This document shows, piece by piece, positions 215-19,906 of a stretch of 64,000 nucleotides of DNA. A program made the translations under genes and the position numbers. The notes below the pieces were generated by a model, which saw nothing but the letters and a program-made list of their open reading frames with translations, was not told where the DNA came from and did not search any database. The stretch covers positions 5,205 to 69,204 of the forward strand of contig JANNPN010000214.1 in the NCBI GenBank assembly GCA_031400185.1, given 5' to 3'. Source of the stretch: Polyangiaceae bacterium. GTDB taxonomy: Bacteria > Desulfobacterota > Binatia > UTPRO1. Positions within the stretch are counted from its first letter, which is position 1. Each line of letters starts with the position of its first letter.

Positions 215-775
215 TTATTTGGCGGCCTCGGATTGCACCTTCGCGGCAAGTCCGTCGGAAATCTTATCGTCCTTCGGGAACGGCGTGACCTTGCGGTCGA
301 CCTTCGCGGTCTCTGCGCCGCCCATCGAGCAATGCCCTTCGAAGATGACGCCTTCTTGTATGATCAAGCTCGGGGTCGTCACGTTGCCGAATAGCTTGCC
401 GGGAGCACGGATTTCTACGCGCTTGCGGGCCGTGATGTCGCCGGTCACGCGGCCCTTGATGATGACCGTGCTGCCCGTGATCTGCGCGTTGACGATCGCG
501 GGTTCACCGACGATCAACGTGTCTTGCGCGTTGATCTCGCCCTCGACCTGTCCGTCGACGCGAACCGTTCCCTCGAAGTTCAGCTTGCCGGTGACGCGAC
601 TTCCCTTGCCGAGATACGCGTTCACCTCGCCGGCGACGGCCGCGGGCACCGCTTCCTTGTCGAGTCCCTCGCGCTCTATGCGCGGCGGCTCGTCGATTGC
701 GGCCCGAATTTCCTGCGATTCGAAACGATCGCTGCGATCGTTGCGATCGCGATTCTCTTTGCCGAAGAGCGCCAT
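215..775 (-). CDS. bactofilin (DUF583 beta-helical cytoskeletal protein)
   Basis: MALFGK N-terminus at internal Met with AAGGAAG RBS 8 nt upstream; repetitive V/I-x-G beta-helix core (GEPAIVNAQITGSTVIIKGRVTGDITARKRVEIRAPGKLFGNVTTPSLIIQEGVIFEGHC) typical of bactofilins. Confidence 0.8.
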   Translation of the reverse strand: MALFGKENRDRNDRSDRFESQEIRAAIDEPPRIEREGLDKEAVPAAVAGEVNAYLGKGSRVTGKLNFEGTVRVDGQVEGEINAQDTLIVGEPAIVNAQITGSTVIIKGRVTGDITARKRVEIRAPGKLFGNVTTPSLIIQEGVIFEGHCSMGGAETAKVDRKVTPFPKDDKISDGLAAKVQSEAAK

Positions 776-897
776 AGAGGGCTTCCTTTCGACGGTCTGC
801 TCGCTGTGTTGCCGACCCAAAACCGCGTCGTCTTAGCACCCGTTTCCGGGCCTTGTCAAAAATGACCGCGGCGCGGGACGACGCCAGGATCAGCCGC

Positions 898-1782
898 TTA
901 CCAGTCGCGTTTCGCGATGCGTGCGACGATGCCGTCCAACTCCTCGCGCGAGTAGTATTCGATCTCGATGCGACCACCCTTGCCTTTGGGCGTGATGCGC
1001 ACGCGCGTACCAAGGGCCGTCGAGAGATCACGTTCCAGTGCCGCGCGGTGCGGATCGCGCGTTTGAGGCCGGGCCGCGGTGCCCTTCCGTGCTGCAGCGA
1101 GTTGCTCGGCATCTCGCACGGACATCTGCCGCGTTTGAATTTGCTTCGCCGCACGAATCTGCGCGTCCGCGTCGTCGATCGAAAGCAATACGCGCGCGTG
1201 CCCTGCGGTGAGGCGACCGCGCGCCAAGTCTTTCTTGATCGATTCCGGAAGCCGCAGCAGACGGAGGGCGTTGGCGACTGCCGGCCTGCTCTTCCCGACC
1301 CGCTCCGCGACTTGCTCCTGCGTGTGCCCGAACTCCTCGATGAGTCGCTGATAAGCGGCTGCCTCTTCGAGCGGGCTGAGATCGTCGCGCTGGATGTTCT
1401 CGACGAGCGCCAGCTCGAGGCTTTCGCCGTCGGTGATGTCGCGGACGAAGACGGGCACGTGGGTCAGACCGGCGCGTTCGGCCGCACGCAAGCGCCGTTC
1501 GCCGGCGACGAGCTCGTAGTCGCCCTCGGCGCTCCGGCGCACCAGAAGCGGCTGCAGAACGCCTTGCACGCGTATGGAGTTTACGAGCTCGGCGAGTGCT
1601 GCTTCGTCGAACTCGATGCGTGGCTGGCGTGGATTGGGCCGGATCTTGTCGATGGCGACCAGCAGATCGGGAGCCGCGGACTCGGACGCCGATGCCTCGC
1701 CCGGCGAGACGCGACCCGCGCCAGGGATCAAGGCGTCGAGGCCCCGGCCGAGCGCCTTGCGCATGCCCTTGTCACCCAACAA
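898..1782 (-). CDS. parB: chromosome partitioning protein ParB (Spo0J)
   Basis: ALGRGLDALIP N-term, ParB box GERRLRAAERAG, HTH, full length 294 aa; overlaps parA by 11 nt. Confidence 0.9.
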   Translation of the reverse strand: MLGDKGMRKALGRGLDALIPGAGRVSPGEASASESAAPDLLVAIDKIRPNPRQPRIEFDEAALAELVNSIRVQGVLQPLLVRRSAEGDYELVAGERRLRAAERAGLTHVPVFVRDITDGESLELALVENIQRDDLSPLEEAAAYQRLIEEFGHTQEQVAERVGKSRPAVANALRLLRLPESIKKDLARGRLTAGHARVLLSIDDADAQIRAAKQIQTRQMSVRDAEQLAAARKGTAARPQTRDPHRAALERDLSTALGTRVRITPKGKGGRIEIEYYSREELDGIVARIAKRDW

Positions 1783-2545
1783 CGTTATGAACCAGCTCTT
1801 CCGTCAAAGCGGCGTATGCCTTCGCGCCGCGTGAATTCGCATCGTACACCATCGCCGGGACACCGTAACTGGGGCATTCGCTCAACCTGACATTTCGAGG
1901 AATTACTGACTTGAAGACCTGGTCTGGGAAGTGTTGCCTCACCTCGTTCACGACTTGATGGGCCAGGCTGTTACGAGTATCAAACATTGTTAATAAAAGC
2001 CCCTCGATTCCGAGATTTGGATTCAGACCCTGGCGAATGAAGCCGATGGTGTCGAGGAGCGCGCTCAGTCCCTCCAGGGCGTAGTACTCGCACTGCAGCG
2101 GGATGAGCACGGCATCGGCCGCACAGAGGGCATTTACGGTCAGAAGTCCGAGCGACGGCGGACAATCGATGATGATGAAATCGTATTGCCGTCGGAGCGT
2201 GGTGATAGCCTCTTGCAGCCGGAACTCACGACGCGGCAGCGGCACCAATTCGATCTCAGCGCCGATGAGATCGCGGCTCGCCGGCATCAGCGAGAGGTTC
2301 TGAACCTGGGTCGGCCGAACGATCTGTTCGATCGCCTTCTCGCCGATCAGGGCATGGTAGACCGAGGCCTCGACCTCATGAGGATGGACGCCAAGGCCGC
2401 TCGTCGCGCTCGCCTGCGGGTCGAGATCGATCAAGAGCGTCGGCTGCCCCGCCAGGGCGAGCCCAGCGCTCAGATTGACCGATGTAGTTGTTTTTCCTAC
2501 TCCGCCCTTTTGATTGGCGACCGCTAGAACCCGTCCCACGAACAC
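1772..2545 (-). CDS. parA: chromosome partitioning ATPase ParA (Soj)
   Basis: Deviant Walker A VLAVANQKGGVGKTTT, 257 aa, upstream of parB. Confidence 0.9.
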   Translation of the reverse strand: MFVGRVLAVANQKGGVGKTTTSVNLSAGLALAGQPTLLIDLDPQASATSGLGVHPHEVEASVYHALIGEKAIEQIVRPTQVQNLSLMPASRDLIGAEIELVPLPRREFRLQEAITTLRRQYDFIIIDCPPSLGLLTVNALCAADAVLIPLQCEYYALEGLSALLDTIGFIRQGLNPNLGIEGLLLTMFDTRNSLAHQVVNEVRQHFPDQVFKSVIPRNVRLSECPSYGVPAMVYDANSRGAKAYAALTEELVHNVVG

Positions 2546-2636
2546 CTCCGCGCTATCAAAACGGCCGAGCGCTCACGTAGCACAGAACCCCCCTTCAGGC
2601 AAAGCGCGATGTACGGTCATCCCCAGTTGTTCCAGT

Positions 2637-2652
2637 TGTTTCACGTGGAACA
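2637..2652. promoter_or_regulatory. parS-like site TGTTTCACGTGGAACA (1 mismatch to consensus), preceded by tandem CCAGTTGTT CCAGTTGTT
   Basis: Direct match to parS consensus TGTTNCACGTGAAACA except G at position 11; located 92 bp upstream of parA start. Confidence 0.6.
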
Positions 2653-3244
2653 TTTTGGGGATAACATGCCCGAAGCCTGACAACGGCGCGTCAGGTCGCC
2701 TTCCCGCCACCAGTTTTTGGACGCGTCGCCGTTTGCACAGCAGCACGGCTCCCGTTTCCCCATAGATGCGACAACGGTTGATCAGCGCCGCTACCGGCGT
2801 CGACGCTCGCGCGAGGTCTACCCCGGGTGGGCGACACCAACCTCATAGGACCGTTCAGCGACGCGGTCCCGAGAGACATATCGCAAGATCGTGATGCGAA
2901 TCTCACCTGAGGCGAAGCCCCATGGCATCCCAGGCCTCTGGGTTGTCGGGGTTTCTGGTTCAGATGCACCACTACTGGACAAGCGGTGACCGTAGAGAGA
3001 ATCCCGGGGGGACAAGGCAGCCGATTGGTTGGCCCTGCGGCACGAGCGATCGCCGCAGCGGATCGCAGCCCGCGTCAAGAAAGATCGGCTTCGCGGGCCA
3101 TGCTGCTCCTTGCCCAAGTTGCTCCGGCTCCCGTCAAGCTGTGACGATGAGAAGTCGCTTCCCACGACTGACCCGGAATGTCTTCAACGCGCTCCTCCCA
3201 GACTGAGCATGGGACATCCGCCCTCCACTGCAGCGCCCTTTGGA

Positions 3245-3260
3245 TGTTCCACGTGAAACA
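3245..3260. promoter_or_regulatory. parS site TGTTCCACGTGAAACA (perfect match to TGTTNCACGTGAAACA)
   Basis: 16-bp palindromic parS consensus immediately after the rsmG stop codon. Confidence 0.7.
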
Positions 3261-3905
3261 TCACCCTGGCATTGTCAGGACCTCGACGCAGCGAGGCCGA
3301 TAGTCACCGATCCGGTAGCGCAAAATCGTCTCGCGGACGTACGGGGGTGGCACCGCGTGCAACGGCTCCGAGCGCATCCAAAAGAGTCGGCCGTGGTCCG
3401 CGAGCCACTCCTGTGCAACGCCTCCAAGCGCATCATCCGACCAGGTCGCCCGCGACACGACGGCATCCGCCGTATGGGCGTACTCGGATGGCGGGGTCTC
3501 GGCTCGCTGCTCCAACACCCTGACGTTCGGCAGATCGAGCGTGCGGCGAACCTCGTGTAGGAACGATGCGCGACGCCTTCGCGCCTCGACGAGCACGAAC
3601 CTCTGGTCTGGGCGAAGAATCGCGAGCGGGATTCCGGGGAAGCCCGCGCCGGTTCCGAGGTCGACGATGCATCCACTCGGCAGCGCAGCCACGAGGGCGA
3701 GTGAATCGAGGAGGTGACGCTCGACGAGCTCTCCCGCGGAGCGACACGAAATCAGATTCATCTTTGGCGCCCAGACGTCCAGCACGTCCGCGAAGCGACC
3801 GAGGTTGGTCGCCGCCGAAGGACTGATCTCAATTCCGAGCGCCGCGGCGCCCGCGATCAGATGGTCTCGGTCAGCTTCTCGGAGTCGCAAGCTCGTCGAG
3901 CTCAC
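3261..3905 (-). CDS. rsmG: 16S rRNA (guanine527-N7)-methyltransferase RsmG (GidB)
   Basis: SAM-MTase motif [16 protein letters not shown]; conserved position downstream of mnmG; start may be later than 3905 (35-nt overlap with mnmG). Confidence 0.85.
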
Positions 3906-5706
3906 GGTCGGCTCGATGACGCTTCGACCAAACGGCGAGGATCGCGACGGCGGCCGGCGTCACGCCGGGGATGCGCGCGGCCTGACCGAGTGTCGCAGGC
4001 CTCACGCTCGCGAGCTTCTCGCGCACCTCGCGCGAGAGGGAATGCATGCGGTCGAAATCCAGGTCCGTGGGAAGGGCCTGCTCTTCGAGCCCTTTTAGGC
4101 GAACGATCTCTCGCTCCTGCCGCGCAATGTACCCCGCGTACTTGATCCGGCATTCGACCTCGCTCTGTACTTGTCTGCTGAGGTCCGGTCGAGTGGTCGG
4201 GCGGCGCGCGGCGAGGTCGGCGAGTGCCGTATCCGGTCGTCGGAGCTCGGCAGCAAGCCCCGAGCTCTCGAGGAACTCGACTTCCGACGTGATCTCCGCA
4301 AGGCGCCCCTGCACGCGCTCGAAGCGGTCGCGATCGATCAGCTTCGCCTCGAATGCGATGTCGGTGAGCCGCTCCTCGGCGTTGCCTTCACGGAGCACCA
4401 AGCGGTGTTCCGCGCGCGATGTGAACATCCGGTACGGTTCGCCGCCGATTCCACGAGTGACGAGATCATCGACCATCACGCCGAGGTACGCCTGGTCACG
4501 CCCGATCACGATCGGGGTCTCGCCGTGCGCCGAGCGGGCGGCGTTCAGACCGGCGAGGAGACCCTGTGCGGCTGCTTCCTCGTATCCCGTCGTGCCGTTG
4601 ATCTGGCCGGCATGGAACAGACCCTTCACGACCTTCGTTTCGAGCGATGCATGCAGCTGGATTGGATCGACGTAGTCGTACTCGATCGCGTATCCGGGCC
4701 GCATTATCTCCGCGTGCTCGAGGCCGGCAATCGACCGCACCATCCGCGTTTGGATGTCGAGCGGGAGGCTGGTGGAAAGGCCGTTCGGATAGATCTCGAC
4801 GGTCTCGAGACCCTCGGGCTCGAGAAAGATCTGATGCCGTTCCTTGTCCGCGAAGCGCACGACCTTGTCTTCGATCGACGGACAGTAACGCGGTCCTCGC
4901 GACGTGATGCTGCCAGAGAACATCGCCGATTCCGGGAGGCCCTCGCGCACGATGTCGTGCGTGGCGCTCGTCGTGTAGGCGATCCAGCAGGAGATCTGCT
5001 GTTGGAGGATGCCGGGTCCGTGCGCCGAGAAAGGTACGGGATCCTGATCTCCGGGCTGCTCGACGAGCGTGCCGAAATCGATCGATCGCCCATCCAGGCG
5101 AGGGCAGGTGCCGGTCTTGAGACGGCCGACGCGGAAGCCGAGCTCACCGAGATGCTGGCTCAGCCCCTGGATCGCGAGGTCGCCGGCACGACCCCCGGGA
5201 TAGCTCCGCTTGCCGACGTGAATCAGACCCTTCAGGAACGTTCCCGTCGTGAGCACGACGGTCTTTCCCGCGAAGAACTCGCCGAGCTCCGTCTCGACGC
5301 CGCTGACGTGGTCGCGGCTAGTTCGCAGGCGTTCGATGCTCGCCTGGCGAAGCGTCACCCTCGGCGCCGACTCCATCACGCGCTTCATGCGGGCGCGGTA
5401 CAGCGCCTTGTCGGCCTGAGCGCGCGTGGCTCTGACCGCGGGTCCCTTCTTGGTGTTGAGCGTCCGGAACTGGATGCCGGTCTCGTCGATCGCGCGTGCC
5501 ATCTCGCCGCCGAGCGCATCGATCTCCTTTACGAGGTGTCCTTTGCCGATCCCTCCTATTGCAGGATTGCAAGACATTTGCCCGATGTGGTCGAGGTTCT
5601 GAGTGAGTAAGAGAACGTCGGCGCCGGAACGTGCAGCCGCGAGAGCTGCCTCGATTCCCGCGTGGCCGGCGCCGACGACGATGACGTCGTAAATCGTCCC
5701 ACTCAT
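3871..5706 (-). CDS. mnmG: tRNA uridine 5-carboxymethylaminomethyl modification enzyme MnmG (GidA)
   Basis: [24 protein letters not shown] motif, 611 aa, full-length GidA-like. Confidence 0.95.
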
Positions 5707-5721
5707 GGTTCGACGCCGAAC

Positions 5722-7107
5722 CTATTTGCCGAGGCAGAAGTCGGCAAACACCCGGTCGAGGACGTCTTCGCTCGTAATCTCTCCCGTGATCCCTGCGAGC
5801 GCGACAGCAGCCGCCGCCAGGTCGCTCGCGATGAGCTCGAGCGGCGTCCCGACCCTGACCCCGTCCTCCGCACGTAGGAGATCCGCGATCGCCTTTCGTA
5901 GCGCATCGTGATGGCGCGCTCGGAATATCACGACCTCGTCGTCCCGCACGCACTCGACGAACCCGAAGAGTAGGTCGGCCAGTCGCATCGTCAGCTCCCT
6001 TAGGCCCGCGCCCGTGAGCGCGCTCACCTCGACGATGTATGCGCAATGCACGGTAGCGGCGACCGCTTCTCCATCGGCTGCCGGCGGTAGATCGGCCTTG
6101 TTGAGCACGGCGATCGTGGGTTTCTGCGCGACGGCTTCCGCGACGAGCGCATCGTCGGCCGTCAGCACCGAGCTTCGATCGAACACGATCACGACGCAGT
6201 CGGAATCGTCCACCGCCCGTCGGCTGCGTTCGACCCCCATCGCCTCGACGACGTCGGTCGCGTCACGGATTCCCGCCGTGTCCATCAGCACGACCGGCGC
6301 ACCGCGCACGACGATCGACGCTTCGACGACGTCGCGTGTGGTTCCGGGGATCGGCGTCACGATCGCGCGCTCCCTTCCGAGAAGCGCGTTCAGCAAACTC
6401 GACTTGCCCACGTTCGGCCGACCGACCAATGCAACGCGGGCACCTCGATATCGCAGCCGGCCCCGCTCGAAGGTCTCCGCCATCACTTCGAGCTCGCCCC
6501 GCACGCGCGCGAGCTGCTGCTCAAGCTCGCGCGCCGCGATCTCGGGCACGTCTTCGTCGGAAAAATCGAGCGACACCTCACAACGTGACCTTGCCTGGAT
6601 CACGCTCTCGCGGAGGCGCCCCACCTGCGCCGACAGTGAGCCCTGGAGCTGCGACCACGCCAATCGCCGGCCGGCCTCGCTCCGCGCTGCGATCAGGTCC
6701 GCGACGGCTTCGGCCTGTGCGAGATCCATGCGACCGTTCTCGAACGCGCGCTTCGTGAACTCTCCGGGCTCTGCGGGTCGCGCTCCCGCTGAACAGAGGC
6801 TTTCGAGAATTCGCTGGGTCACGAGCGTACCGCCGTGACACTGGACCTCTACGACGTCCTCACCGGTGTAGGTTCGGGGCGCGCGCATGCCGAACACCAG
6901 CACTTGGTCGATCGCCTCTTCGCCGTCTGCACCGAGGAGGTTTCCGACGTACACCCGACGCATTTCCGGGATTCCGCCGCCGCCACGCCGCCGGAAAAGA
7001 CGCGCGACGATCGCGTGGGACTCGTTGCCGCTCACGCGCACGACGGCGACGCCGCCGGCCCCCGGAGCCGTCGCTACCGCGACGATGGTATCCCGCGGGG
7101 AGGTCAC
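5722..7107 (-). CDS. mnmE: tRNA modification GTPase MnmE (TrmE)
   Basis: G-domain GRPNVGKSSLLNAL, C-terminal CLGK motif, 461 aa. Confidence 0.9.
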   Translation of the reverse strand: MTSPRDTIVAVATAPGAGGVAVVRVSGNESHAIVARLFRRRGGGGIPEMRRVYVGNLLGADGEEAIDQVLVFGMRAPRTYTGEDVVEVQCHGGTLVTQRILESLCSAGARPAEPGEFTKRAFENGRMDLAQAEAVADLIAARSEAGRRLAWSQLQGSLSAQVGRLRESVIQARSRCEVSLDFSDEDVPEIAARELEQQLARVRGELEVMAETFERGRLRYRGARVALVGRPNVGKSSLLNALLGRERAIVTPIPGTTRDVVEASIVVRGAPVVLMDTAGIRDATDVVEAMGVERSRRAVDDSDCVVIVFDRSSVLTADDALVAEAVAQKPTIAVLNKADLPPAADGEAVAATVHCAYIVEVSALTGAGLRELTMRLADLLFGFVECVRDDEVVIFRARHHDALRKAIADLLRAEDGVRVGTPLELIASDLAAAAVALAGITGEITSEDVLDRVFADFCLGK

Positions 7108-7156
7108 GTGGGACCGCGATGGGGTTGGAGACCGTGAAGCTGAGTGGAACGGCGCG

Positions 7157-8842
7157 CTACGCCGCTGCTTGCTCGGCCGGCCTCGCCGGCTCCCGATTCG
7201 ACCACCACTGCTGCGCGATCGTCAGCACGTTGTTCACGAGCCAATACAGCACCAACCCGGACGGGAAACTGATGAACATCACCGTGAACATCACCGGCAT
7301 GAGGATCATCATCATTCGCTGCTGGGCTGGGTCCATGCCCGTCGCAGGCGACAGCCATTGCTGGAGGATCATGCTGCCACCCATGAGGAGCACGAGGATG
7401 GGAATCGGGATCCCAAGCACGGCGAACTCGTTGCACCCGCTGATCGTCCCTTGTCCGGGCCACGGATAGCACTCGTGTGCCGACAAGTCGCGCACCCAGA
7501 ATGCGAACTTTGCATGGCGGAGCTCGATTGCTTGGCTGAGCGCCTGGTACAGGCCGATGAAGACCGGGAACTGCAGCAGCATCGGAAGACAGCCCCCGAG
7601 GGGGTTCACGCGATGCCGCCGGTAGAGCTCGATCATCTCCTTGTTCAGACGCTCGCGGTCGTCCTTGTACTTCTCGCGGAGCTTCACCATCTGCGGTTGC
7701 AGCCGCTGCATGTCGCGCATCGATCTCATGCTGCGATTGGTGAGCGGGATAAAGAGCACCTTCACGAGGATCGTGAGAAGAATGATGTCGACCCCGTAGT
7801 TGCGGGTGATGCTGTGGAACAACTTCAGAAGGCGGAGCAGGGGAATTGCGAGGAATGAAAACCACCCGAAGTCGACGGCGCGGTCGAGCTGATGTCCCGC
7901 CGCCGCCAGCACCTCAACGTCCTTCGGGCCGACGTACACCGTGAAACGTGTCCCTCCGTCGGGCGCGCGCGCGCTCGTGAGCAGCAACTGAACGCCGCCG
8001 TTCTCGGGGCTGACGGTCGCTCGCGCCTGCGTTGGCTCAGCCGGGATCAGCGCAGCGACGAAGTAATGATCCGCGTAGCTGACCCAGCCGACCGGTGATG
8101 CGAAGGCCTGCGGCGGCGCGGACGCGATGCTGGTCGCGAGCTCGCGCACGACCTTCTTGTCGGCGAGTACGGCGGTCCCGCGGTAGTACAACTCTGGGTC
8201 ACCCGCGACCGCCTCGACGATCTGGTGCCGCCATCCGAGCCCCACGCGCGTGAGTCGGTCGGAGGCGCCGCCCGTACGGACCTCCACCCCGATAGGATAA
8301 CTCGCACCGCTGAAAGTGAGCGTCTTCTCGATCGTCGCCCCAGAGGGCAACGTTCCACGCAGAACGACGGTACCGGTATCCGAGCCCCGAAGGGTGACCT
8401 CGCGATGATCGCTCGCGTAGGCGACCTGCGTGTCGTCCTCGACGACCTTGCCGTCGTCGGATGCGAGTCGGACACCAAGCGGGGCGGCCGCCGTCGGGCC
8501 GACCTGGATCATCTCGAGCGGGGCACTCTCGGACATCACCGCGGTGCGGTACCCCTTGAGCTTGAGGCTGACGATGCGACCGCCGACGGGCGAGATCTCA
8601 GCCGTGAAGACATCGGTCTCGACACGGATCGGCTCGCCGACCGCCACGGGCGCCGCCTCTGCCGGTGCCGGCGCCGCTGCGAGATTTCCTTCAGAGGGTG
8701 CACGGGCCTCCACGGGAGGCGATACTTCCGCGGTGGGTGCGGCTCCCTCGGGCGGCAGCGGATAGAAGTACCGCAGCGCCTCCTGGTAGCCGACCAGCAC
8801 GACGAGACACAAAACCGCTGCGAGAAGCGCGCGCCGTTCCAT
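7157..8842 (-). CDS. yidC: membrane protein insertase YidC
   Basis: 561 aa, N-terminal TM plus periplasmic domain, C-terminal 5-TM 60 kDa IMP core; conserved rnpA-yidD-yidC-mnmE synteny. Confidence 0.9.
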   Translation of the reverse strand: MERRALLAAVLCLVVLVGYQEALRYFYPLPPEGAAPTAEVSPPVEARAPSEGNLAAAPAPAEAAPVAVGEPIRVETDVFTAEISPVGGRIVSLKLKGYRTAVMSESAPLEMIQVGPTAAAPLGVRLASDDGKVVEDDTQVAYASDHREVTLRGSDTGTVVLRGTLPSGATIEKTLTFSGASYPIGVEVRTGGASDRLTRVGLGWRHQIVEAVAGDPELYYRGTAVLADKKVVRELATSIASAPPQAFASPVGWVSYADHYFVAALIPAEPTQARATVSPENGGVQLLLTSARAPDGGTRFTVYVGPKDVEVLAAAGHQLDRAVDFGWFSFLAIPLLRLLKLFHSITRNYGVDIILLTILVKVLFIPLTNRSMRSMRDMQRLQPQMVKLREKYKDDRERLNKEMIELYRRHRVNPLGGCLPMLLQFPVFIGLYQALSQAIELRHAKFAFWVRDLSAHECYPWPGQGTISGCNEFAVLGIPIPILVLLMGGSMILQQWLSPATGMDPAQQRMMMILMPVMFTVMFISFPSGLVLYWLVNNVLTIAQQWWSNREPARPAEQAAA

Positions 8843-8845
8843 CCG

Positions 8846-9088
8846 CTATCGCAAGCTTGAGGGCACGGGATCCACGCCGATCTCCGACCAGGGATGACAG
8901 CGCAGCAAGCGCCACACGGCAAACAACCCGCCGCGCACGATGCCATGGGTCAACACAGCCTGCTCCGCGTACGACGAGCATGTCGGGTGAAAACGGCACG
9001 CGGGGGCGAGAAGCGGCGACACGGCGAGCCGATACGCGCGAATGGGAAGCACGGCAAGAGTCCTCACGACGAGCATGAGACGGCTCAC
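8846..9088 (-). CDS. yidD: membrane protein insertion efficiency factor YidD
   Basis: 80 aa with [15 protein letters not shown]...RLLRCHPW...GVDPVP hallmark. Confidence 0.8.
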
Positions 9089-9453
9089 TTCGAGTTGGAG
9101 CGAGGTGAAGCGGAAGCATCGAACGCGATCGCGAGCTCGTGTTGCACAACCTGCATGGGAACGGCGCCGACGCCTTCCCTTGCAATGACGATCACGTCAT
9201 GCCCGAGTGCGTCACGTGCCGGATGGCGTCGGAAGACCTCACGAATGCGGCGCTTCAGCCCGTTCCTGGTGACCGCATCACCGACCTTACGACTCACCGT
9301 CACGCCGAGCCTCGCCTCGCCAGACGTACGACGCATGAGCAACACGAAGCTCGCCGTCCGCCGCTTTTCGCCGGTCCGTCCCAATGACAAGAACTCCCGA
9401 CGACGACGAATGCGCGCCGCCTTGGGGAAGCCCTGGCCATGCCGGGGCGTCAT
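9085..9453 (-). CDS. rnpA: ribonuclease P protein component RnpA
   Basis: 122 aa basic protein, RRRxEF / KRRIRE motifs; start overlaps rpmH stop (ATGA). Confidence 0.85.
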
Positions 9454-9608
9454 CTCGGCTGCTTCGGAGGGATCGAGACGGTCAGTCGCTTGCGACCCTT
9501 GGCACGCCTGCGCTTGAGGATGTTACGTCCTCCGGGCGTGGCCATGCGGGCGAGAAACCCATGGGTTCGCTTGCGACGGGTGTTGCTCGGTTGAAATGTT
9601 CGTTTCAT
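9450..9608 (-). CDS. rpmH: 50S ribosomal protein L34
   Basis: Manual minus-strand translation [52 protein letters not shown]; below 60-aa ORF-track cutoff. Confidence 0.85.
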
Positions 9609-9654: not shown

Positions 9655-9882
9655 TCACGCCACTGCAGCAGGTTCCGCGGCTGCGGCCGCCGTTTTGGTC
9701 TTACCATGCTCATCGCACTTCGATCCGACCGCACGCGGCTTTCGACATGCTTCCGCGGTGCAGATCTTGAAGCGGCCCTTTGGAAGGGTGCCCTGTCGCC
9801 ATTGCTTGTAGTGCCGTGCGCAGTAGCCCTTGCCGACCGCGTCGCGCGCACATCCCTCGAACTTACAGCTACCCTTCGACAT
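9655..9882 (-). CDS. small Cys-rich protein with two tandem C-x4-C-x9-C-x2-H motifs (putative zinc-binding)
   Basis: 75 aa; CKFEGC..YCARH and CTAEAC..KCDEH repeats; basic, Ala-rich tail. Confidence 0.5.
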   Translation of the reverse strand: MSKGSCKFEGCARDAVGKGYCARHYKQWRQGTLPKGRFKICTAEACRKPRAVGSKCDEHGKTKTAAAAAEPAAVA

Positions 9883-10025: not shown

Positions 10026-10631
10026 ATGTCGCTCAAGTACGCCATCCTGAGCTTGCTCTCCCACGATCCGCTGACCGGCTACGAGCTCATGAAGCTCTTC
10101 GACGGCTCCGTCGGATACTTCTGGCACGCGACGCACCCGCAGATCTACAAAGAGCTCGGTCGGCTCGAACGCGCCGGGCAGGTCGTGCACCGCAGCGTCG
10201 AGCAGCGAGGACGGCCGACCAAGAAGATCTACTCGCTGAGCGACCTGGGTCGGAACGAGCTGCTCGAATGGCTACACGTTCCCGCCGGGACGCAGCGAGT
10301 CAAAGACGAGATGATGCTGAAGACTTTCTGCTGCGGCCTCTTGTCCGAGGCGGAAGCTCTGGACCTGGTCCGCCGCCATCGTCAGCAGCACGAGGTCAAG
10401 CTGCAACGCTACCAAGAGCTGGAGCGCTTTCTCGAGAGCGGCCTCAACACGGCGAACCGCGATCGACTCGGACCGTATCTGACGTTGCTTCGCGGCATCC
10501 GCTACGAGCGCGACTACATCGGGTGGTGCGACGAAGCCGTGCGGCTGCTCCGTCGGATCGACCACGCGCTCCCGCCGCAACCCGTGTCCCGAGAGATGAC
10601 CGCGAAAGCCCCGCGCAAACGCAGGAGCTGA
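10026..10631 (+). CDS. PadR family transcriptional regulator (with C-terminal dimerization domain)
   Basis: N-terminal wHTH LSLLSHDPLTGYELMKLF...WHATHPQIYKELGRLERAG characteristic of PadR. Confidence 0.85.
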   Translation: MSLKYAILSLLSHDPLTGYELMKLFDGSVGYFWHATHPQIYKELGRLERAGQVVHRSVEQRGRPTKKIYSLSDLGRNELLEWLHVPAGTQRVKDEMMLKTFCCGLLSEAEALDLVRRHRQQHEVKLQRYQELERFLESGLNTANRDRLGPYLTLLRGIRYERDYIGWCDEAVRLLRRIDHALPPQPVSREMTAKAPRKRRS

Positions 10632-10637
10632 CGCCTC

Positions 10638-13157
10638 TTACGACCCGGTCGGTTCGACCGTACCGGCGTCGTTGGCAACACCGTTTCCGGCTGTTCCGTT
10701 GCTGGTGCCGGTGCCGCCGTCCTCCTCGTCCTGTTCCGCAAGACGCGCGAGACTGACGACGCGCTCGCCTTCCTCGATGTCGATGAGGCGCACGCCCTGG
10801 GTGTTCCGACCGATCACGCGAATGTCCGCGACGCGGAGGCGAATGATTTTTCCCGTGCTCGTCACGAGCATCAGGTTGTCCTCATCCGTCACTTGCTGGA
10901 CGCCGATCACGGCGCCGGTCCGGTCCGTCGCCTTCATCGTGATGATGCCTTTGCCGCCGCGCGACTGGACCCGGTACTCGGCGATGTCGGTGCGCTTCCC
11001 GTAGCCGTTCTCCGCGACCGTGAGCACGCTTGCACCCGGGCTAAGGATCTCGAGGCTCACGACTTCGTCGTTTTCCTCGAGCGTGATGCCCTTCACGCCT
11101 CCGGCGCTCCGGCCCATGCTGCGGACGTCGCCTTCGGCGAAGCGAATCGCCTGGCCGTCGCGAGTCGTGAGGATCACCTCTTGTTGCCCGTCCGTGAGCC
11201 GGACGCCGATCAACTCGTCGTTCGTGTCGAGATTGATAGCGATGATCCCGGACGGACGCGGGTTCGCGTACGCCATCAGGTCCGTCTTCTTTACGACGCC
11301 TTGCTTCGTCGCGAAGAACACGAAGTGGTTCTCGCGGAACTCGCGGACCGGCAAGAAGGCAGAGATCTTCTCGTCAGGCTTCAGCTCGAGCAGGTTGACG
11401 ATGGCCTTGCCGCGCGCCGCCCGTCCTGCCTGCGGGACCTCGTGCACCTTGATCCAGTACACTTTGCCTGCGGTCGTGAAGAACAGGAGGAAGCTGTGCG
11501 TCGAGGCGATGAACAGGTGCTCGACGAAGTCTTCCTCGCGCGTCGTTGCGCCGATCTTGCCCTTGCCCCCGCGACGCTGGGCTCGGTACAGGGACACCGG
11601 GTTCCGCTTGATGTAGCCCTCGTGCGAGATCGTGACCGCCATGTCCTCGTCGGCGATCATGTCCTCGATCGAGATGTCGCCGATCTCGTCGACGATCTCC
11701 GTGCGTCGGGCGTCCCCGTACGTCTCTTTGAGGTCGCGCATTTCCTGAACGATGATCTTGGAGATTTCGCGCTCGTCCGAGAGGATCGCGCGCAAGCGCA
11801 CGATCAGCGCCTCGACCTCGCGGTACTCCTCGATGATCTTGTCGCGCTCGAGGTTCGTGAGCCGTTGCAAGCGCATGTCGAGGATCGCTTGTGCTTGCAG
11901 CTCGGACAGGGAGAACGTCGCGACCAAACCATCCTTGGCGATCGCAGGGTTTGCGGCTTTGCGGATGAGCGCGATCACCGCGTCGAGGTTCTCGATCGCG
12001 ATCTTCAAGCCTTCGAGGATGTGTAGCCGGTCCTCCGCCTTCCGCAGGTCGAAGATGGTCCGTCGAGTGACGACCTCGACTCGGTGGGCGACGAAGTGCT
12101 GCAGCATGGCCTTGAGACTCAGCAGCCGCGGGCGATTCTCGACGATCGCCAGCATGATCATCCCGAAGGACTCCTGCATCGGCGTCATCTTGTAGAGCTG
12201 GTTCAGCACGATCTCCGGCACGGCATCGCGCCGGAGCTCGACGACGACGCGCATGCCTTGCCGATCGGATTCGTCGCGGAGATCGTAGATGCCCTCGATA
12301 CGCTTCTCGTTCACGAGCTCCGCGATGCGCTCGAGGAGACGGGCCTTGTTCACTTGGTAGGGGATCTCCGTGACGATGATGCTCGTTCGATTGCTCTTCT
12401 TGTCGACCTCGGTGGTGGCGCGAGCGCGGACCTGCAGGACGCCTTTCCCGGTCTCGTAGGCTTCCCGGATCGGCCCCCTGCCGTGAATGAACCCGGCTGT
12501 CGGGAAATCCGGCCCTGGAACGTGTTGCATCAGCTCGACGACGGTGATCCCGGGGTTCGCGATCAGTGCGATCACTGCGTCGGTGAGCTCGTTCAGGTTG
12601 TGCGGCGGGATGTTCGTGGTCATTCCGACGGCGATCCCCGAGCTGCCGTTCAAGAGCAGGTTCGGAAGCTTCGCGGGCATCACCCGCGGCTCTTTCAGCG
12701 TCTCGTCGTAGTTCGGGCTGAACTCGACGGTCTCCTTGTCGAGGTCCGCCAGCAGCTCGCTCGCGATTCGCGCCATGCGGATCTCGGTGTACCGCATGGC
12801 GGCCGCCGGATCGCCGTCGACCGAGCCGAAGTTGCCCTGGCCGTCGACCAGCGGGTAACGCATCGAGAAGTCCTGCGCCATGCGAACGATGGCGTCGTAC
12901 ACCGCCGAGTCGCCGTGCGGGTGGTACTTGCCGATGACGTCGCCGACAACACGCGCCGACTTTTTGTAGCCCCGATTCCACTCGTTCCCGAGGTCGTACA
13001 TCGCGTAGAGAATGCGGCGATGCACCGGTTTCAACCCGTCGCGCACGTCGGGTAGCGCGCGGCGAATGATGACGCTCATTGCGTAGTCCATGTAGGACTG
13101 ACGCATTTCGTCTTCGATGTTGACCGGAATCCGGTTGTGCTTGAGCGGTGACTCCAT
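10638..13157 (-). CDS. gyrA: DNA gyrase subunit A
   Basis: 839 aa; [23 protein letters not shown], active-site Tyr region, C-terminal beta-pinwheel repeats. Confidence 0.95.
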
Positions 13158-13168
13158 CGGTCAGGGCA

Positions 13169-15613
<2,445 letters not shown>

Positions 15614-15725
15614 CTAGCGCGACGGGGCCGACCCACGGCCCTCCCAAACCCCGCTCCATCCCCTCACCTGCAGCCTAGCAAGCGGGTGCCGAAGGGTAAA
15701 GCTTTCCGCCTTCTACATCCGCGGC

Positions 15726-16841
15726 TTAGAGCCGCATCGGCATGACAACGTAGGAGTAGGTTTCATCCTCCTGCATGCGCAGGATTCCGGGGCTCACCTC
15801 GTCGGTGAGGCCGATCTCGACGATGCCGGACACGCCGCTCAGTTGCAGCACGTCGAGCAAATAGCGAGCGTTGAACCCGATCGCGAACTCGTCGCCGGCG
15901 TAGTCTGCCTCGAGCTCCTCGCGGGCCTCACCAATGTCGGGGTTGGTCGTTGCAACCTCGAGCAGCCCGTTCTCGACGCGGAGCTTCACGCCTCGGGCAC
16001 GTTCGCTGGAGAGAATCGACACGCGGCGCAGCGCACCAAGCAGCTCTGCGCTCCCGACTCTGACATGTCGCTTGCTTTCTTTCGGAATCACCTGCCGGTA
16101 GTCGGGGAACTCACCCTCGATCAGGCGCATGAACAGCTCGACGCCGGCGCGCTCGATCCGAGCGAGATTTCCGCCGATCGAGAAGCTGATCTCGCCGTCG
16201 CCGACTTCGAGCAGACGACGCGCTTCGACGAGACCCTTCCGCGGCAGAATGACCCCGGGCTTGATCTCGACTCCCGTGACCTCGCGTTCGACGAGAGCAA
16301 GCCGGTGGCCGTCGGTCGCCACCATGCGGACCTGGTTCTTCTCGACGCTTTCGATGAACACGCCGCCGAGACTCAAACGGGTCTCGTCGGTGGAGACCGC
16401 GAACAGCGTCTTCTCGATCATCTCGCCAAGCGCGTCACTCGGGAGATGCATTACCACCGTGCCCTTTTTCGCCGCGGGAGTCGCTGCTGGAATGCTCGGG
16501 AAATCCTTCGGGTCGATCGAAAGCATACGGTACCGAGCGCGGCCGCCCGTCACCTCGACGCTCCCGCCGCCGGCCTTCAGGACCACCTCGTCGCTCGGAA
16601 GCTCGCGAACGATCTCGTAGAGCTTCCGCGCGTTCAGGGTGATCGAGCCCGCCTGTGCGACCTTTCCCCGACACGATCGGCGAACGCCGACTTCCAGGTC
16701 GGTGGCGGTCAGTTGAATGTCAGCTCCAGTGGCCTCGATCAGGACGTTCGCGAGGATCGGAAGCGTGTTGCGCTTCTCGACGACTCCTTGGGTCAGGTAG
16801 AGGCCTTGCAAGAAGTCGTTCTTTTCGACGCGAAGATCCAT
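15726..16841 (-). CDS. dnaN: DNA polymerase III beta sliding clamp
   Basis: 371 aa, three-domain clamp, position between dnaA and gyrB. Confidence 0.9.
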   Translation of the reverse strand: MDLRVEKNDFLQGLYLTQGVVEKRNTLPILANVLIEATGADIQLTATDLEVGVRRSCRGKVAQAGSITLNARKLYEIVRELPSDEVVLKAGGGSVEVTGGRARYRMLSIDPKDFPSIPAATPAAKKGTVVMHLPSDALGEMIEKTLFAVSTDETRLSLGGVFIESVEKNQVRMVATDGHRLALVEREVTGVEIKPGVILPRKGLVEARRLLEVGDGEISFSIGGNLARIERAGVELFMRLIEGEFPDYRQVIPKESKRHVRVGSAELLGALRRVSILSSERARGVKLRVENGLLEVATTNPDIGEAREELEADYAGDEFAIGFNARYLLDVLQLSGVSGIVEIGLTDEVSPGILRMQEDETYSYVVMPMRL

Positions 16842-17096
16842 CGTCCAGGGTCCCTCGGTAAGAAAGCGAGCCTTTGTAGCCTAGTGTCTTTAGAGAAGTA
16901 AATTAGAAGAGCTAGTAGTAGTAGGCACGCGGATTCGGTGGATACAGGGGCCAACTAGCGAAGGTCGCAGCGTTTCACTTGTGCACGCCGGTGGACGGAG
17001 CACCCACGATGAAGCCAACGCACGACGTCTGGTCGTCCGTGTCCCCAGGGGCTCCAGCGAGAATCCCCACGCCATCCAACGATCATCCACAGGCAG
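16842..17096. other. putative oriC (dnaA-dnaN intergenic): AT-rich stretch ~16870-16925 plus DnaA-box-like 9-mers (TCATCCACA at ~17080; GGTGGATAC; TTGTGCACG)
   Basis: Local AT-rich segment ttgtagcctagtgtctttagagaagtaaattagaagagctagtagtagtagg in a ~70% GC genome; DnaA-box variants by eye. Confidence 0.4.
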
Positions 17097-18443
17097 TCAG
17101 GATTTCGTTCGCGCGAGTCGTTCGAGCTCGTCGATCACCGCGCGGAGCTGGTGGTCGTCCTTGAGACGGCGCTCGATCGTGTTGTTCCCGTGAATGACGG
17201 TCGAGTGGTCGCGCCCACCGAAGCGCTCGCCGATGACGGGGAATGACGACCCGGTGAGCTTGCGGGCGAGAAACATCGCGATCTGGCGTGGGAACGCGAT
17301 GTTGCGTGTCCGCTTCTGCGAGAGCAGGTCGCCGAGACGAATACCGTGATGCTCGCACACGACGCGTTGGATGGTCTCGATGCTCACGGTCGACCGGTCG
17401 CGCAGGAGATCCTGGAGGACGTGGCGGGCGAAATCCACGGTGATGGCGGTCTTGGAGAGCGAGGCGAAAGCCGAAAGACGCGTCAGGCACCCTTCGAGCT
17501 CACGGACGTTCGAGTCGATCTTCGAAGCGAGGTGGATGGCGACCTCACGCGGAAGCTCGAGACCGTCAATTTCGGCCTTCTTCTCGAGGATCGCGACGCG
17601 GGTCTCCATGTCCGGCGGCTGAACATCGGCGATGAGCCCCCACTCGAAGCGATTGCGCAGACGTTCCTCCAGGCCGGGGATGTCCTTCGGTACCGTGTCG
17701 GACGTGAGGATGATCTGCTTGTGCGACTCGTGCAGAGCGTTGAAGGTGTGGAAGAACTCTTCCTGCGTGCGCTCGCGGTTCGCCAGGAACTGCACGTCGT
17801 CGACGATCAGGATATCGATCTTCCGAAACGTGGATTTGAACTCCTCCATCCGGTCGCGGCGGAGCGCTGTGATCAGTTGGGTCATGAACACTTCGGCGCT
17901 CAGATACGCGACGCGTGTCTCGGAGTCGGCCTCGAGGGCGGCGTGACCGATCGCATTCGCGAGGTGGGTCTTGCCGAGCCCGACGCCGCCGTAGAGGAAG
18001 AGCGGATTGTAGTGGTGTCCAGGTTGGGCGGCGACCGCTTTGCACGCGGCGTTCGCGAACTGGTTGCTCGCCCCGACCACGAAAGTTGCGAAGGTATACC
18101 GCGGCACCAGGGCGCCGAACCGGATCGGGCGTCGTTTGCCCGCAGGCGCGTCGCCAGGGAAAAGCTCGCCTTGCGCACGGCCCGCGACGATTACGCTCAC
18201 GCGGCACGGCTTCCCGACTGCGCGCATCGCATCCTCGAGACCGCCGGGATAGTGCAACGTCATCCAGCTCGCGGCAGTTGTCGTCGGCGCAACCAGTCGG
18301 AGCTCGTCGCCGTCCATGCCGGCGAACCGTAACGTCTCGACGCCGGATTGGAACGCTTCGCGTCCGAAGCGAGCCAACAAGATCTCACGTGCACGCTGCC
18401 ACGCGAGATCGGGCGCATCTTCAACGGGTGCCGGGCGGCTCAT
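17097..18443 (-). CDS. dnaA: chromosomal replication initiator DnaA (start moved to internal Met; ORF upstream extension looks non-coding)
   Basis: Domain I-like N-term, AAA+ GGVGLGKTHL Walker A, C-terminal DNA-binding domain; 448 aa from MSRPAPVED. Confidence 0.9.
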   Translation of the reverse strand: MSRPAPVEDAPDLAWQRAREILLARFGREAFQSGVETLRFAGMDGDELRLVAPTTTAASWMTLHYPGGLEDAMRAVGKPCRVSVIVAGRAQGELFPGDAPAGKRRPIRFGALVPRYTFATFVVGASNQFANAACKAVAAQPGHHYNPLFLYGGVGLGKTHLANAIGHAALEADSETRVAYLSAEVFMTQLITALRRDRMEEFKSTFRKIDILIVDDVQFLANRERTQEEFFHTFNALHESHKQIILTSDTVPKDIPGLEERLRNRFEWGLIADVQPPDMETRVAILEKKAEIDGLELPREVAIHLASKIDSNVRELEGCLTRLSAFASLSKTAITVDFARHVLQDLLRDRSTVSIETIQRVVCEHHGIRLGDLLSQKRTRNIAFPRQIAMFLARKLTGSSFPVIGERFGGRDHSTVIHGNNTIERRLKDDHQLRAVIDELERLARTKS

Positions 18444-18628
18444 CGCGTCCGCAGCCAATGTCGTGTCACAGGGCAGACCCAGGAACGGCGAGACGCGGAT
18501 CTGTAGACGCTTTGCCGGGGGTTCGCAAGCAAAAATCTTCGCGACCGGCGCGGAGCGGCGCACGTTGATTGCCTCTGACCGCAGTGGTACCTGCAGCACC
18601 TCGCGCTCGCCGCGCTTTCCGTGTCGCT

Positions 18629-19906
18629 GTGACGACGCTCTCGACAAAGCTCTACGACGAAGCGTCCCGGCTCTTTCCCGGGGGCGTCAACAGCCCCGTA
18701 CGCGCGTGGCGGAACGTTGACGGGACACCGCTTTTCATCTCGCGTGCGCGCGGTGCGACCATCACCGATGCGGACGGACGCACATACCGCGATTTCGTCG
18801 GGTCGTGGGGCGCCGCGATCGCCGGCCACGCGCATCCCGACGTCGTCGCCGCAGTGAATCGAGCCGTCGCGTCGGGTCTCGGCTTCGGCGCGCCGACGCC
18901 CGCAGAGATCGCGCTCGGGCGAGCCATCACCGAAGCGATGCCGTCGATTCAGCGCATCCGCATGGTGAACTCCGGCACCGAGGCGACGATGTCCGCGATC
19001 CGCGTCGCTCGCGCGTTCACCGGGCGGCCGAAGATCCTCAAGTTCGCCGGGTGCTATCACGGGCATTCCGACGGCCTGTTGGCTCGAGCCGGCTCTGGGG
19101 CGCTCACGTTCGGAGTACCCGACAGCGCAGGAGTCCCGGAGTCGGTGGCCTCGAACACGCTCGTCGCGGCGTTCAATTCGGCCGAGGCCGAGGCGTATCT
19201 CGAGGCGTACGGCAACGAGCTCGCGGCGGTCATCGTCGAGCCGATCGCGGCCAACATGGGCGTCGTCCCCCCCGCGCCCGGTTTCCTCGAGCGTCTGCGG
19301 GAAGCGACGCGGAACCACGGTACCCTGCTGATCTTCGACGAGGTGATCTCCGGCTTCCGTGTCGCGCGCGGCGGAGCTCAAGCGCTCCTCGGGATCGAGC
19401 CAGACCTTACGTGTCTCGGCAAGATCATCGGGGGCGGCCTACCCGTAGGCGCGTTCGGTGGACGACGCGACGTCATGGAGTTGCTCGCCCCGCTCGGGCC
19501 CGTCTACCAAGCAGGAACGCTCTCCGGGAACCCCGTGACCATGGCCGCGGGAAACGCGACGCTCGGCGTACTCGATGCAAAGGCTTTTGGCCGTCTCGAG
19601 ACGATGGGAAGGCACATTGCGGCCGGGCTCGAAGAAGCATTGCGCCGGACGGGCATCGTCGGCTGCGTGCAACGGGTCGGATCGATGTTCACCCTCTTAT
19701 TCGGCGTCGAATCCGCGGCGAACCTGGTCGAGGTGGAGCGTGCAGACCGGGACCGCTTCCGACGGTTCTTTTACGGCATGCTCGAGCGAGGCTTCTACCT
19801 CCCCCCCTCGCCGTTCGAGGCGTCCTTCGTGTCGCTGGCGCACACGGAAGCGGACGTCGACGCGTTTGTCGCCGCGGCGGTCGAAACCTTGCAGTCGCTC
19901 GAGTGA
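18629..19906 (+). CDS. hemL: glutamate-1-semialdehyde 2,1-aminomutase HemL (GTG start chosen)
   Basis: LFPGGVNSPVRA N-terminal signature, class-III PLP aminotransferase, ~426 aa; divergent from dnaA. Confidence 0.85.
   Translation: MTTLSTKLYDEASRLFPGGVNSPVRAWRNVDGTPLFISRARGATITDADGRTYRDFVGSWGAAIAGHAHPDVVAAVNRAVASGLGFGAPTPAEIALGRAITEAMPSIQRIRMVNSGTEATMSAIRVARAFTGRPKILKFAGCYHGHSDGLLARAGSGALTFGVPDSAGVPESVASNTLVAAFNSAEAEAYLEAYGNELAAVIVEPIAANMGVVPPAPGFLERLREATRNHGTLLIFDEVISGFRVARGGAQALLGIEPDLTCLGKIIGGGLPVGAFGGRRDVMELLAPLGPVYQAGTLSGNPVTMAAGNATLGVLDAKAFGRLETMGRHIAAGLEEALRRTGIVGCVQRVGSMFTLLFGVESAANLVEVERADRDRFRRFFYGMLERGFYLPPSPFEASFVSLAHTEADVDAFVAAAVETLQSLE

Follow-up and report, generated by a model that had tools for sequence, protein, structure and literature searches.

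The rsmG-parAB locus and the origin domain

The window, as the whole 64-kb stretch of DNA analysed here will be called, derives from an uncultured Binatia-like bacterium and carries rsmG, parA, parB and a bactofilin gene on its minus strand, with two predicted parS sites in the spacer between rsmG and parA. These features, together with the genes that define their position relative to the presumed replication origin, are as follows.

215–820, minus strand: bactofilin gene, directly downstream of parB (Pfam Bactofilin, 1.9e-28)
898–1764, minus strand: parB (Pfam ParB_N, HTH_ParB, ParB_C)
1772–2539, minus strand: parA, Walker-type ATPase with N-terminus VGRVLAVANQKGGVGKTT (Pfam AAA_31, 1.2e-65; CbiA; ParA)
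2540–3260: rsmG-parA spacer, 721 bp
2543–2604, minus strand: parA-proximal block, putative leader or promoter (invariant columns of alignment A2)
2623–2640, no strand assigned: perfect 9-bp tandem duplication, CCAGTTGTT twice (TRF score 36)
2637–2652, no strand assigned: parS-B, the parA-proximal predicted site (TGTTTCACGTGGAACA on the plus strand, TGTTCCACGTGAAACA on the minus strand)
2653–3244, no strand assigned: orphan non-coding DNA between parS-A and parS-B, 592 nt
3245–3260, no strand assigned: parS-A, the rsmG-proximal predicted site (TGTTCCACGTGAAACA on the plus strand)
3261–3905, minus strand: rsmG (gidB; Pfam GidB, 2.3e-37)
3871–5706, minus strand: mnmG
5722–7107, minus strand: mnmE
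7157–8842, minus strand: yidC
8846–9088, minus strand: yidD
9085–9453, minus strand: rnpA
9450–9608, minus strand: rpmH
10638–13157, minus strand: gyrA
13169–15592, minus strand: gyrB
15726–16841, minus strand: dnaN
16842–17096, no strand assigned: best oriC candidate, dnaA-dnaN intergenic region (low GC, DnaA-box-like 9-mers, AT-rich tract)
17097–18647, minus strand: dnaA

The spacer reaches its length of 721 bp because 592 nt of orphan DNA separate the two sites, whose start-to-start spacing in the window is 608 bp. parS-A adjoins the rsmG stop codon (3261–3263) with a gap of 0, as had been described, and with the parA start taken as called on the window organism's own locus (L001), parS-B lies 97 nt upstream of the GTG codon at 2539. 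The view of the initial annotation that the sites bracket the spacer is thus exact at the rsmG end, where parS-A abuts the gene, but approximate at the other, where parS-B stops short of parA.

A ParB loading zone had been placed next to both parAB and oriC. The first part of this claim, a predicted loading zone beside parAB, is strongly supported by the sequence, but oriC is not adjacent, its best candidate lying approximately 13.6 kb from the parS pair in the dnaA-dnaN intergenic region. This region is the lowest-GC stretch nearby (0.49–0.50) and contains DnaA-box-like 9-mers at 16937 and 17083 in addition to an AT-rich tract, while the cumulative GC skew passes through a shallow minimum at about 13–16 kb; it is put forward here as a candidate only. 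The cluster dnaA-dnaN-gyrB-gyrA occupies 10.6–18.6 kb and the parS pair 2.6–3.3 kb, so that the parS-to-dnaA distance of about 14 kb positions the pair well inside the ori domain as defined in PMC7022226. The pair is origin-proximal, not adjoining oriC.

The rsmG-parA spacer itself, with a GC content of about 60%, was considered as a location for oriC and rejected, as it holds one DnaA box with 1 mismatch and neither a box cluster nor an AT-rich tract. This near-consensus box (TTATCCCCA) is found on the minus strand at 2656–2664, 3 nt from parS-B, and window-wide counts of DnaA boxes are at chance level. parS-B is also seen to lie inside a longer imperfect palindrome (2616–2665, GTCATCCCCA ... 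TGGGGATAAC), the right arm of which holds the TTATCCCCA box and the left arm a box with 2 mismatches (2617–2625).

Several features of gene order in this region may be recorded alongside. The dnaA-dnaN-gyrB-gyrA string (10638–18647) and the string running from rpmH to parB (898–9608) share the minus strand, a co-directional arrangement that departs from the common divergent one around oriC. Between the two strings lie a PadR-family regulator on the plus strand (10026–10631) and a small Cys-rich ORF on the minus strand (9655–9882), and recF was not seen between dnaN and gyrB. Within 18440–18700 there is an overlap between two longest ORFs, that of dnaA, which opens with TTG at 18647, and that of a divergent class-III aminotransferase on the plus strand, which opens at 18569. 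Since the DnaA_N domain match in the dnaA ORF begins only at residue 83, the true dnaA start probably lies downstream, at about 18400–18450, and the short divergent intergenic region upstream of this shifted start would be an alternative oriC candidate.

The parS pair, its cognate ParB and its conservation

The two 16-mers, located where the initial annotation had reported them, are exact reverse complements of each other, and their inverted identity reaches 17 nt (2637–2653 and 3244–3260). In a pattern search each site matched the consensus TGTTNCACGTGAAACA on both strands, with 0 mismatches on one strand and 1 on the other, so that both 16-bp near-palindromes represent perfect matches. The earlier description of parS-A as perfect was therefore correct, but the one mismatch ascribed to parS-B resulted from reading the plus strand only, and disappears in the TGTTCCACGTGAAACA of the minus strand. 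For a near-palindrome of this kind orientation depends on the single degenerate position N5/N12, and in relatives the sites are palindromic or mixed, so that the inverted arrangement emphasized previously is uninformative.

Matches of this quality are not expected by chance. Four strand-matches were observed, whereas dinucleotide-preserving shuffles (n = 100) gave an expectation of 0.03 at a tolerance of 2 mismatches and of 0.30 at a tolerance of 3, and none of the 100 shuffles reached the observed four. No third TGTTNCACGTGAAACA site is present within the 64-kb window with up to 3 mismatches allowed, in agreement with the earlier visual search for full sites, and after these two the best 16-mers in the window carry 4 mismatches. 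Exact half-sites (TGTTNCAC) outside both full sites number five across the window, without enrichment over the approximately 3.7 expected.

The ParB encoded at this locus contains all three domains recognized by Pfam (ParB_N, with an E-value of 5.4e-33, HTH_ParB and ParB_C), and its residues 94–100 lie in the stretch AGERRLRAA, which matches the GERRxRA CTP-binding box. Its best matches among solved structures are parS-binding proteins, namely Thermus Spo0J (1vz0, 4e-56), Myxococcus ParB (7bnk), Caulobacter ParB (6t1f) and B. subtilis Spo0J (6sdk), and Noc structures are also detectable relatives in this PDB comparison. Residues assigned by Jalal et al. to parS contact or to discrimination between parS and NBS, namely Q162, G170, K171, S172, R173, N178, G201 and R204 in Caulobacter numbering (bioRxiv 10.1101/724823), are all present at the exact Caulobacter spacing (GHTQEQVAERVGKSRPAVAN...TAGHAR). 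Specifically, in the same numbering, R at position 173 and G at position 201 are of the parS type and not of the Noc Q/R type, while the residues at positions 179 (A) and 184 (R) are both tolerated. The adjacent ParA carries a KGGVGKTT motif in addition to its AAA_31 match.

Conservation was assessed in eleven independent related lineages represented by thirteen loci (L002, L004/L007, L005, L006, L008, L009, L010/L011, L012, L014, L015 and L016, where L004/L007 and L010/L011 are duplicates), in which RsmG is 48–66% identical to that of the window. An exact match to the window's RsmG was found only on one NCBI contig and one Logan contig (SRR20217204), the nearest other RsmG being only 66% identical. 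Those relatives that bear a name are MAGs assigned to Candidatus Binatia or "Deltaproteobacteria". All eleven lineages keep two sites with 0–2 mismatches to parS at the 3' end of rsmG, bearing out the expectation that the sites would be conserved in related genomes. The parS-A ortholog overlaps the rsmG stop or is removed from it by at most about 94 nt in every lineage, and by at most 22 nt in all except L015. The relatives' sites are mostly either the perfect palindrome TGTTTCACGTGAAACA or variants with C/T (G/A) at position 5/12 of one half or the other. Together with the perfect consensus, the cognate ParB and the adjacent ParA, this two-site layout in eleven related lineages makes the parS identity well supported, and on sequence grounds both 16-mers very probably function as the parS centromere of this bacterium.

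A point overlooked in the initial annotation is the unusual distance between the sites. Start-to-start spacings in the eleven lineages are 26, 29, 36, 36, 36, 37, 37, 38, 38, 56 and 474 bp, so that in ten of the eleven the sites are 26–56 bp apart, leaving a gap of 10–40 nt, compared with 608 bp in the window. Judged by these comparisons, the close two-site layout is ancestral to the clade. The single expanded relative, a distant one, is L015 (ENA ERZ27248688 k141_164245, 3757–4246), in which the 474-bp spacing leaves 458 nt between the sites, the rsmG-parA gap measures 777 bp, and the expansion contains a 20-bp tandem array of 3.2 copies (3840–3903).

Two further observations emerged from the related loci. 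In the unexpanded relatives (L002, L004, L005, L006, L008, L009, L010, L012, L014, L016) the parS centres are mostly 36–38 bp apart; distances of 26 and 36–38 bp correspond to approximately 2.5 and 3.5 helical turns, with an uneven fit in a small sample, and at such roughly half-integral numbers of turns two ParB dimers would sit on opposite faces of the DNA. The second concerns the gene order parB-bactofilin-atpF-atpF-atpH, which was seen in the window organism (L001) and wherever a related locus extends far enough to show it. The bactofilin gene occurs in L008 (6499–7050), L012 (6580–7137), L014 (5514–6068), L016 (5745–6098) and L015 (6384–6663), in the last of which it is cut by the end of the locus and the atp genes fall beyond it. 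The parAB-bactofilin linkage appears to be conserved across the Binatia-like clade.

The flanks and interior of the expanded spacer

On the parA side of the spacer, the segment from parS-B to parA is alignable across eight loci (alignment A2), confining the extra DNA to the interval that separates the ancestral sites. This segment carries, ahead of the parA start, the motifs CTTTGC ... TGTG[G/C]TACG ... CGGCCG ... GGAGGTG, the last a Shine-Dalgarno sequence, and the invariant blocks of alignment A2 (CTTT, TGTG-TACG, CGGCCG, GGAGGTG and the GTG start) are all kept in the window. The conservation of this leader block (CTTTGCC ... TTTGTGGTACGCC ... CGGCCG ... GGAGGTG) was observed at only about 60–66% RsmG identity to the window, whose own version of the TGTGGTACG core is TGTGCTACG. 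No sigma-70 consensus match was found in the block (2543–2604), and the idea that the parA leader folds into a conserved RNA was rejected, the RNAalifold covariation term being +1.22 with one compensatory pair. With no covariation to support a structure, the block is conserved as sequence, presumably as the promoter or leader of parA, and may be a parAB promoter or operator peculiar to this clade.

Adjoining parS-B is the tandem CCAGTTGTT duplication, the second copy of which overlaps the outer 4 nt of the site. The initial annotation, which pointed out this tandem, was right as to its existence but also read into it a further parS half-site. The sequence in question, TGTTCCAG, agrees with TGTTCCAC at 7 of 8 positions, has 5 mismatches when scored as a full site, and is not conserved. 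The window has approximately 14–20 extra nt directly after parS-B, tandem included, and since the tandem is missing from all relatives in alignment A2 it is best regarded as a lineage-specific slippage duplication, in which the final 4 nt of parS and 5 nt of flanking sequence would have been copied a second time.

The 592-nt interior is absent from related loci. An assembly artefact, in the form of a chimeric join or of a repeat collapsed or expanded at the palindromes, deserves consideration insofar as palindromes and inverted repeats can mislead assemblers, and the exact structure is seen in one organism only. However, an independent Logan assembly reproduces the region in a 6.3-kb contig (SRR20217204_908680) with 100% identity over the 851 bp compared, an interval that takes in the entire spacer together with flanking sequence on each side. 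Assembly k-mers are usually longer than the 17 nt of the repeat, and a comparable expansion exists in a second lineage (L015) from a different study. The probability that the long spacer arose in this way is accordingly close to nil.

A coding function for the spacer was examined along several lines. Codon-position GC periodicity collapses over about 2775–3225, and a hidden gene was rejected because all spacer ORFs of at least 40 aa score between -0.07 and -0.46 bits/codon under a codon model for which genes of the window served as training set, compared with +0.16 to +0.62 bits/codon for real genes. No Pfam family rose above noise for the three longest spacer ORFs (E ≤ 0.001) or for the six-frame translations (E ≤ 1), and a concatenated six-frame query against 5.8e9 proteins gave no match at E ≤ 0.01. 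A decayed noc or parB paralog was likewise rejected, as tblastx found no similarity to the window's own parB.

Searches for an RNA gene or regulatory signal were similarly negative. There is no Rfam match at the gathering threshold anywhere in the window, and for 2450–3350 the sole sub-threshold match in Rfam 15 scored 17.2 bits, compared with a cutoff of 40 (E = 2.7). A structured RNA in the spacer was rejected on the basis of minimum free energy z-scores of -0.33 and -0.85 relative to shuffles. The spacer shows no sigma-70-like promoter and no gene-strand terminator, its one terminator-like hairpin being on the non-gene strand.

Mobility of the interior was approached through its possible copies, none of which were detected by blastn or tblastx in the window or in related loci, nor was there a match among PLSDB plasmids or INPHARED phages. 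Homology between the window and L015 interiors was rejected, their local alignment score of 22.0 being compared with a shuffled mean of 21.5. An element resembling a MITE, with the 17-nt inverted repeats as its termini, the 592 nt as its cargo and the parS likeness either secondary or due to targeting or mimicry of parS by the element, would account for a perfect inverted repeat around an orphan non-coding interior of MITE-like size that is missing from ten of the eleven related lineages. Such an origin is nevertheless highly improbable. In the ten lineages whose loci are 'empty', both supposed termini stand close together without the interior, and so predate the insert. No target-site duplication, in the form of a direct repeat, is visible at the boundaries, the interior occurs in a single copy in the 64 kb and all related loci compared, no frame contains a transposase remnant, and both the absence of plasmid or phage matches and the unrelated L015 interior speak against an element that moves.

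It has also to be asked whether the DNA between the sites has a function, whether as a small RNA, as a leader or promoter of parAB, or as a spacer tuning the ParB partition complex, which could separate two loading sites or add a binding site for DnaA or another protein. The gap has expanded independently in two lineages (592 nt in the window and 458 nt in L015), the GC content of the interior is native (about 0.62), a 1-mismatch DnaA box lies next to parS-B, and the region belongs to a co-directional, operon-like string of genes. That L015 was expanded at this position as well might point to more than neutral drift. Against this, the negative Rfam result is joined by the lack of excess folding energy on either strand and of a promoter or gene-strand terminator of the types sought, nothing is common to the two expansions, the insert does not include the conserved block near parA, and DnaA-box counts do not exceed chance. 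A functional role for this DNA is thus very unlikely.

The most likely interpretation, we infer, is that the 592 nt are neutral filler at a slippage-prone pair of palindromes. Slippage at this locus is visible in the 9-bp duplication at parS-B and in the 20-bp array of L015, and the short ancestral gap would have been filled through replication slippage, template switching or repair. There is a slim chance that the inter-parS gap is a place where Binatia have repeatedly acquired DNA and that the DNA acquired is functional or mechanistically informative; it might, for example, hold a lineage-specific RNA or regulatory region lying within the centromere, or be the trace of repair or insertion provoked by ParB-loaded palindromes.

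Proposed partition mechanism and comparison with known systems

ParB dimers bind parS, form CTP-dependent clamps and slide onto flanking DNA, across which they spread over kilobases; a single parS near oriC suffices for this system, although several are common (PMC7022226). By analogy with characterised ParB proteins, each near-palindrome of the window would bind one dimer of ParB, whose gene lies approximately 0.9 kb downstream, followed by CTP-dependent clamp closure and sliding onto flanking DNA. CTP-dependent loading of ParB at these predicted sites would assemble a partition complex across rsmG-parAB for subsequent segregation by ParA. Since ParB clamps spread over kilobases, the increase in spacing from about 36 bp to 608 bp should leave function unchanged.

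The parS sites described here are a standard textbook feature, and what is new is their occurrence in an under-studied, uncultured Binatia-like lineage in which they are not known to have been described. A chromosome-partition site is now annotated for the poorly studied candidate phylum Binatota, and conservation across the clade extends to the two parS sites at the rsmG-parA junction and to the parAB-bactofilin string. These results are of use for genome annotation and for mapping of the origin region, and leave the understanding of ParABS unchanged. The split pair amounts to a small natural experiment, since loading of ParB at both sites would illustrate a lack of constraint on inter-site spacing, and the filler DNA would become modestly interesting if it proved functional or mobile.

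A parS of this consensus beside parAB in the ori domain is textbook knowledge. The Spo0J/parS centromere of B. subtilis was reportedly described by Lin and Grossman in 1998, and parS sites are said to have been surveyed by Livny and colleagues in 2007. The locus in the window shares with the B. subtilis type of ParABS the 16-bp consensus TGTTNCACGTGAAACA in an origin-proximal position beside parAB, a ParB with a GERRxRA CTPase box, a parS-type HTH and a C-terminal dimerisation domain, and a Walker-type ParA. It differs in nothing of kind, two sites being seen here in 64 kb.

In Firmicutes the ParB paralog noc is encoded between gidB and soj, so that extra DNA between rsmG and parA in the window occupies the position at which noc is carried there. 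The resemblance ends with this position, however, as the insert is without ParB or Noc similarity in any frame, the sites are parS and not NBS, and the window ParB carries R173 and G201 instead of the Noc-type Q and R.

Parallels for individual elements of this arrangement are found in Myxococcus xanthus and in mycobacteria. In M. xanthus the bactofilin gene bacM is located directly downstream of parAB (PMC5703909), about 22 parS sites are present (PMC3899335), and BacM acts in cell shape, while it is BacNOP/PadC and not BacM that organise ParABS (PMC5703909; PMC3899335). The window shares the parA-parB-bactofilin order, and its ParB is close to the M. xanthus structure 7bnk, but no PadC-like gene was seen in it. 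In mycobacteria two parS copies are found around gidB-parA-parB, located in gidB or upstream of it and inside parA; gidB and parA overlap, and ParB bound at these sites may modulate transcription of gidB and parA (PMC2346475). Both systems thus have two parS sites tied to a gidB(rsmG)-parA-parB string, but in the window both sites reside in the rsmG-parA gap, where they ancestrally formed a close pair.
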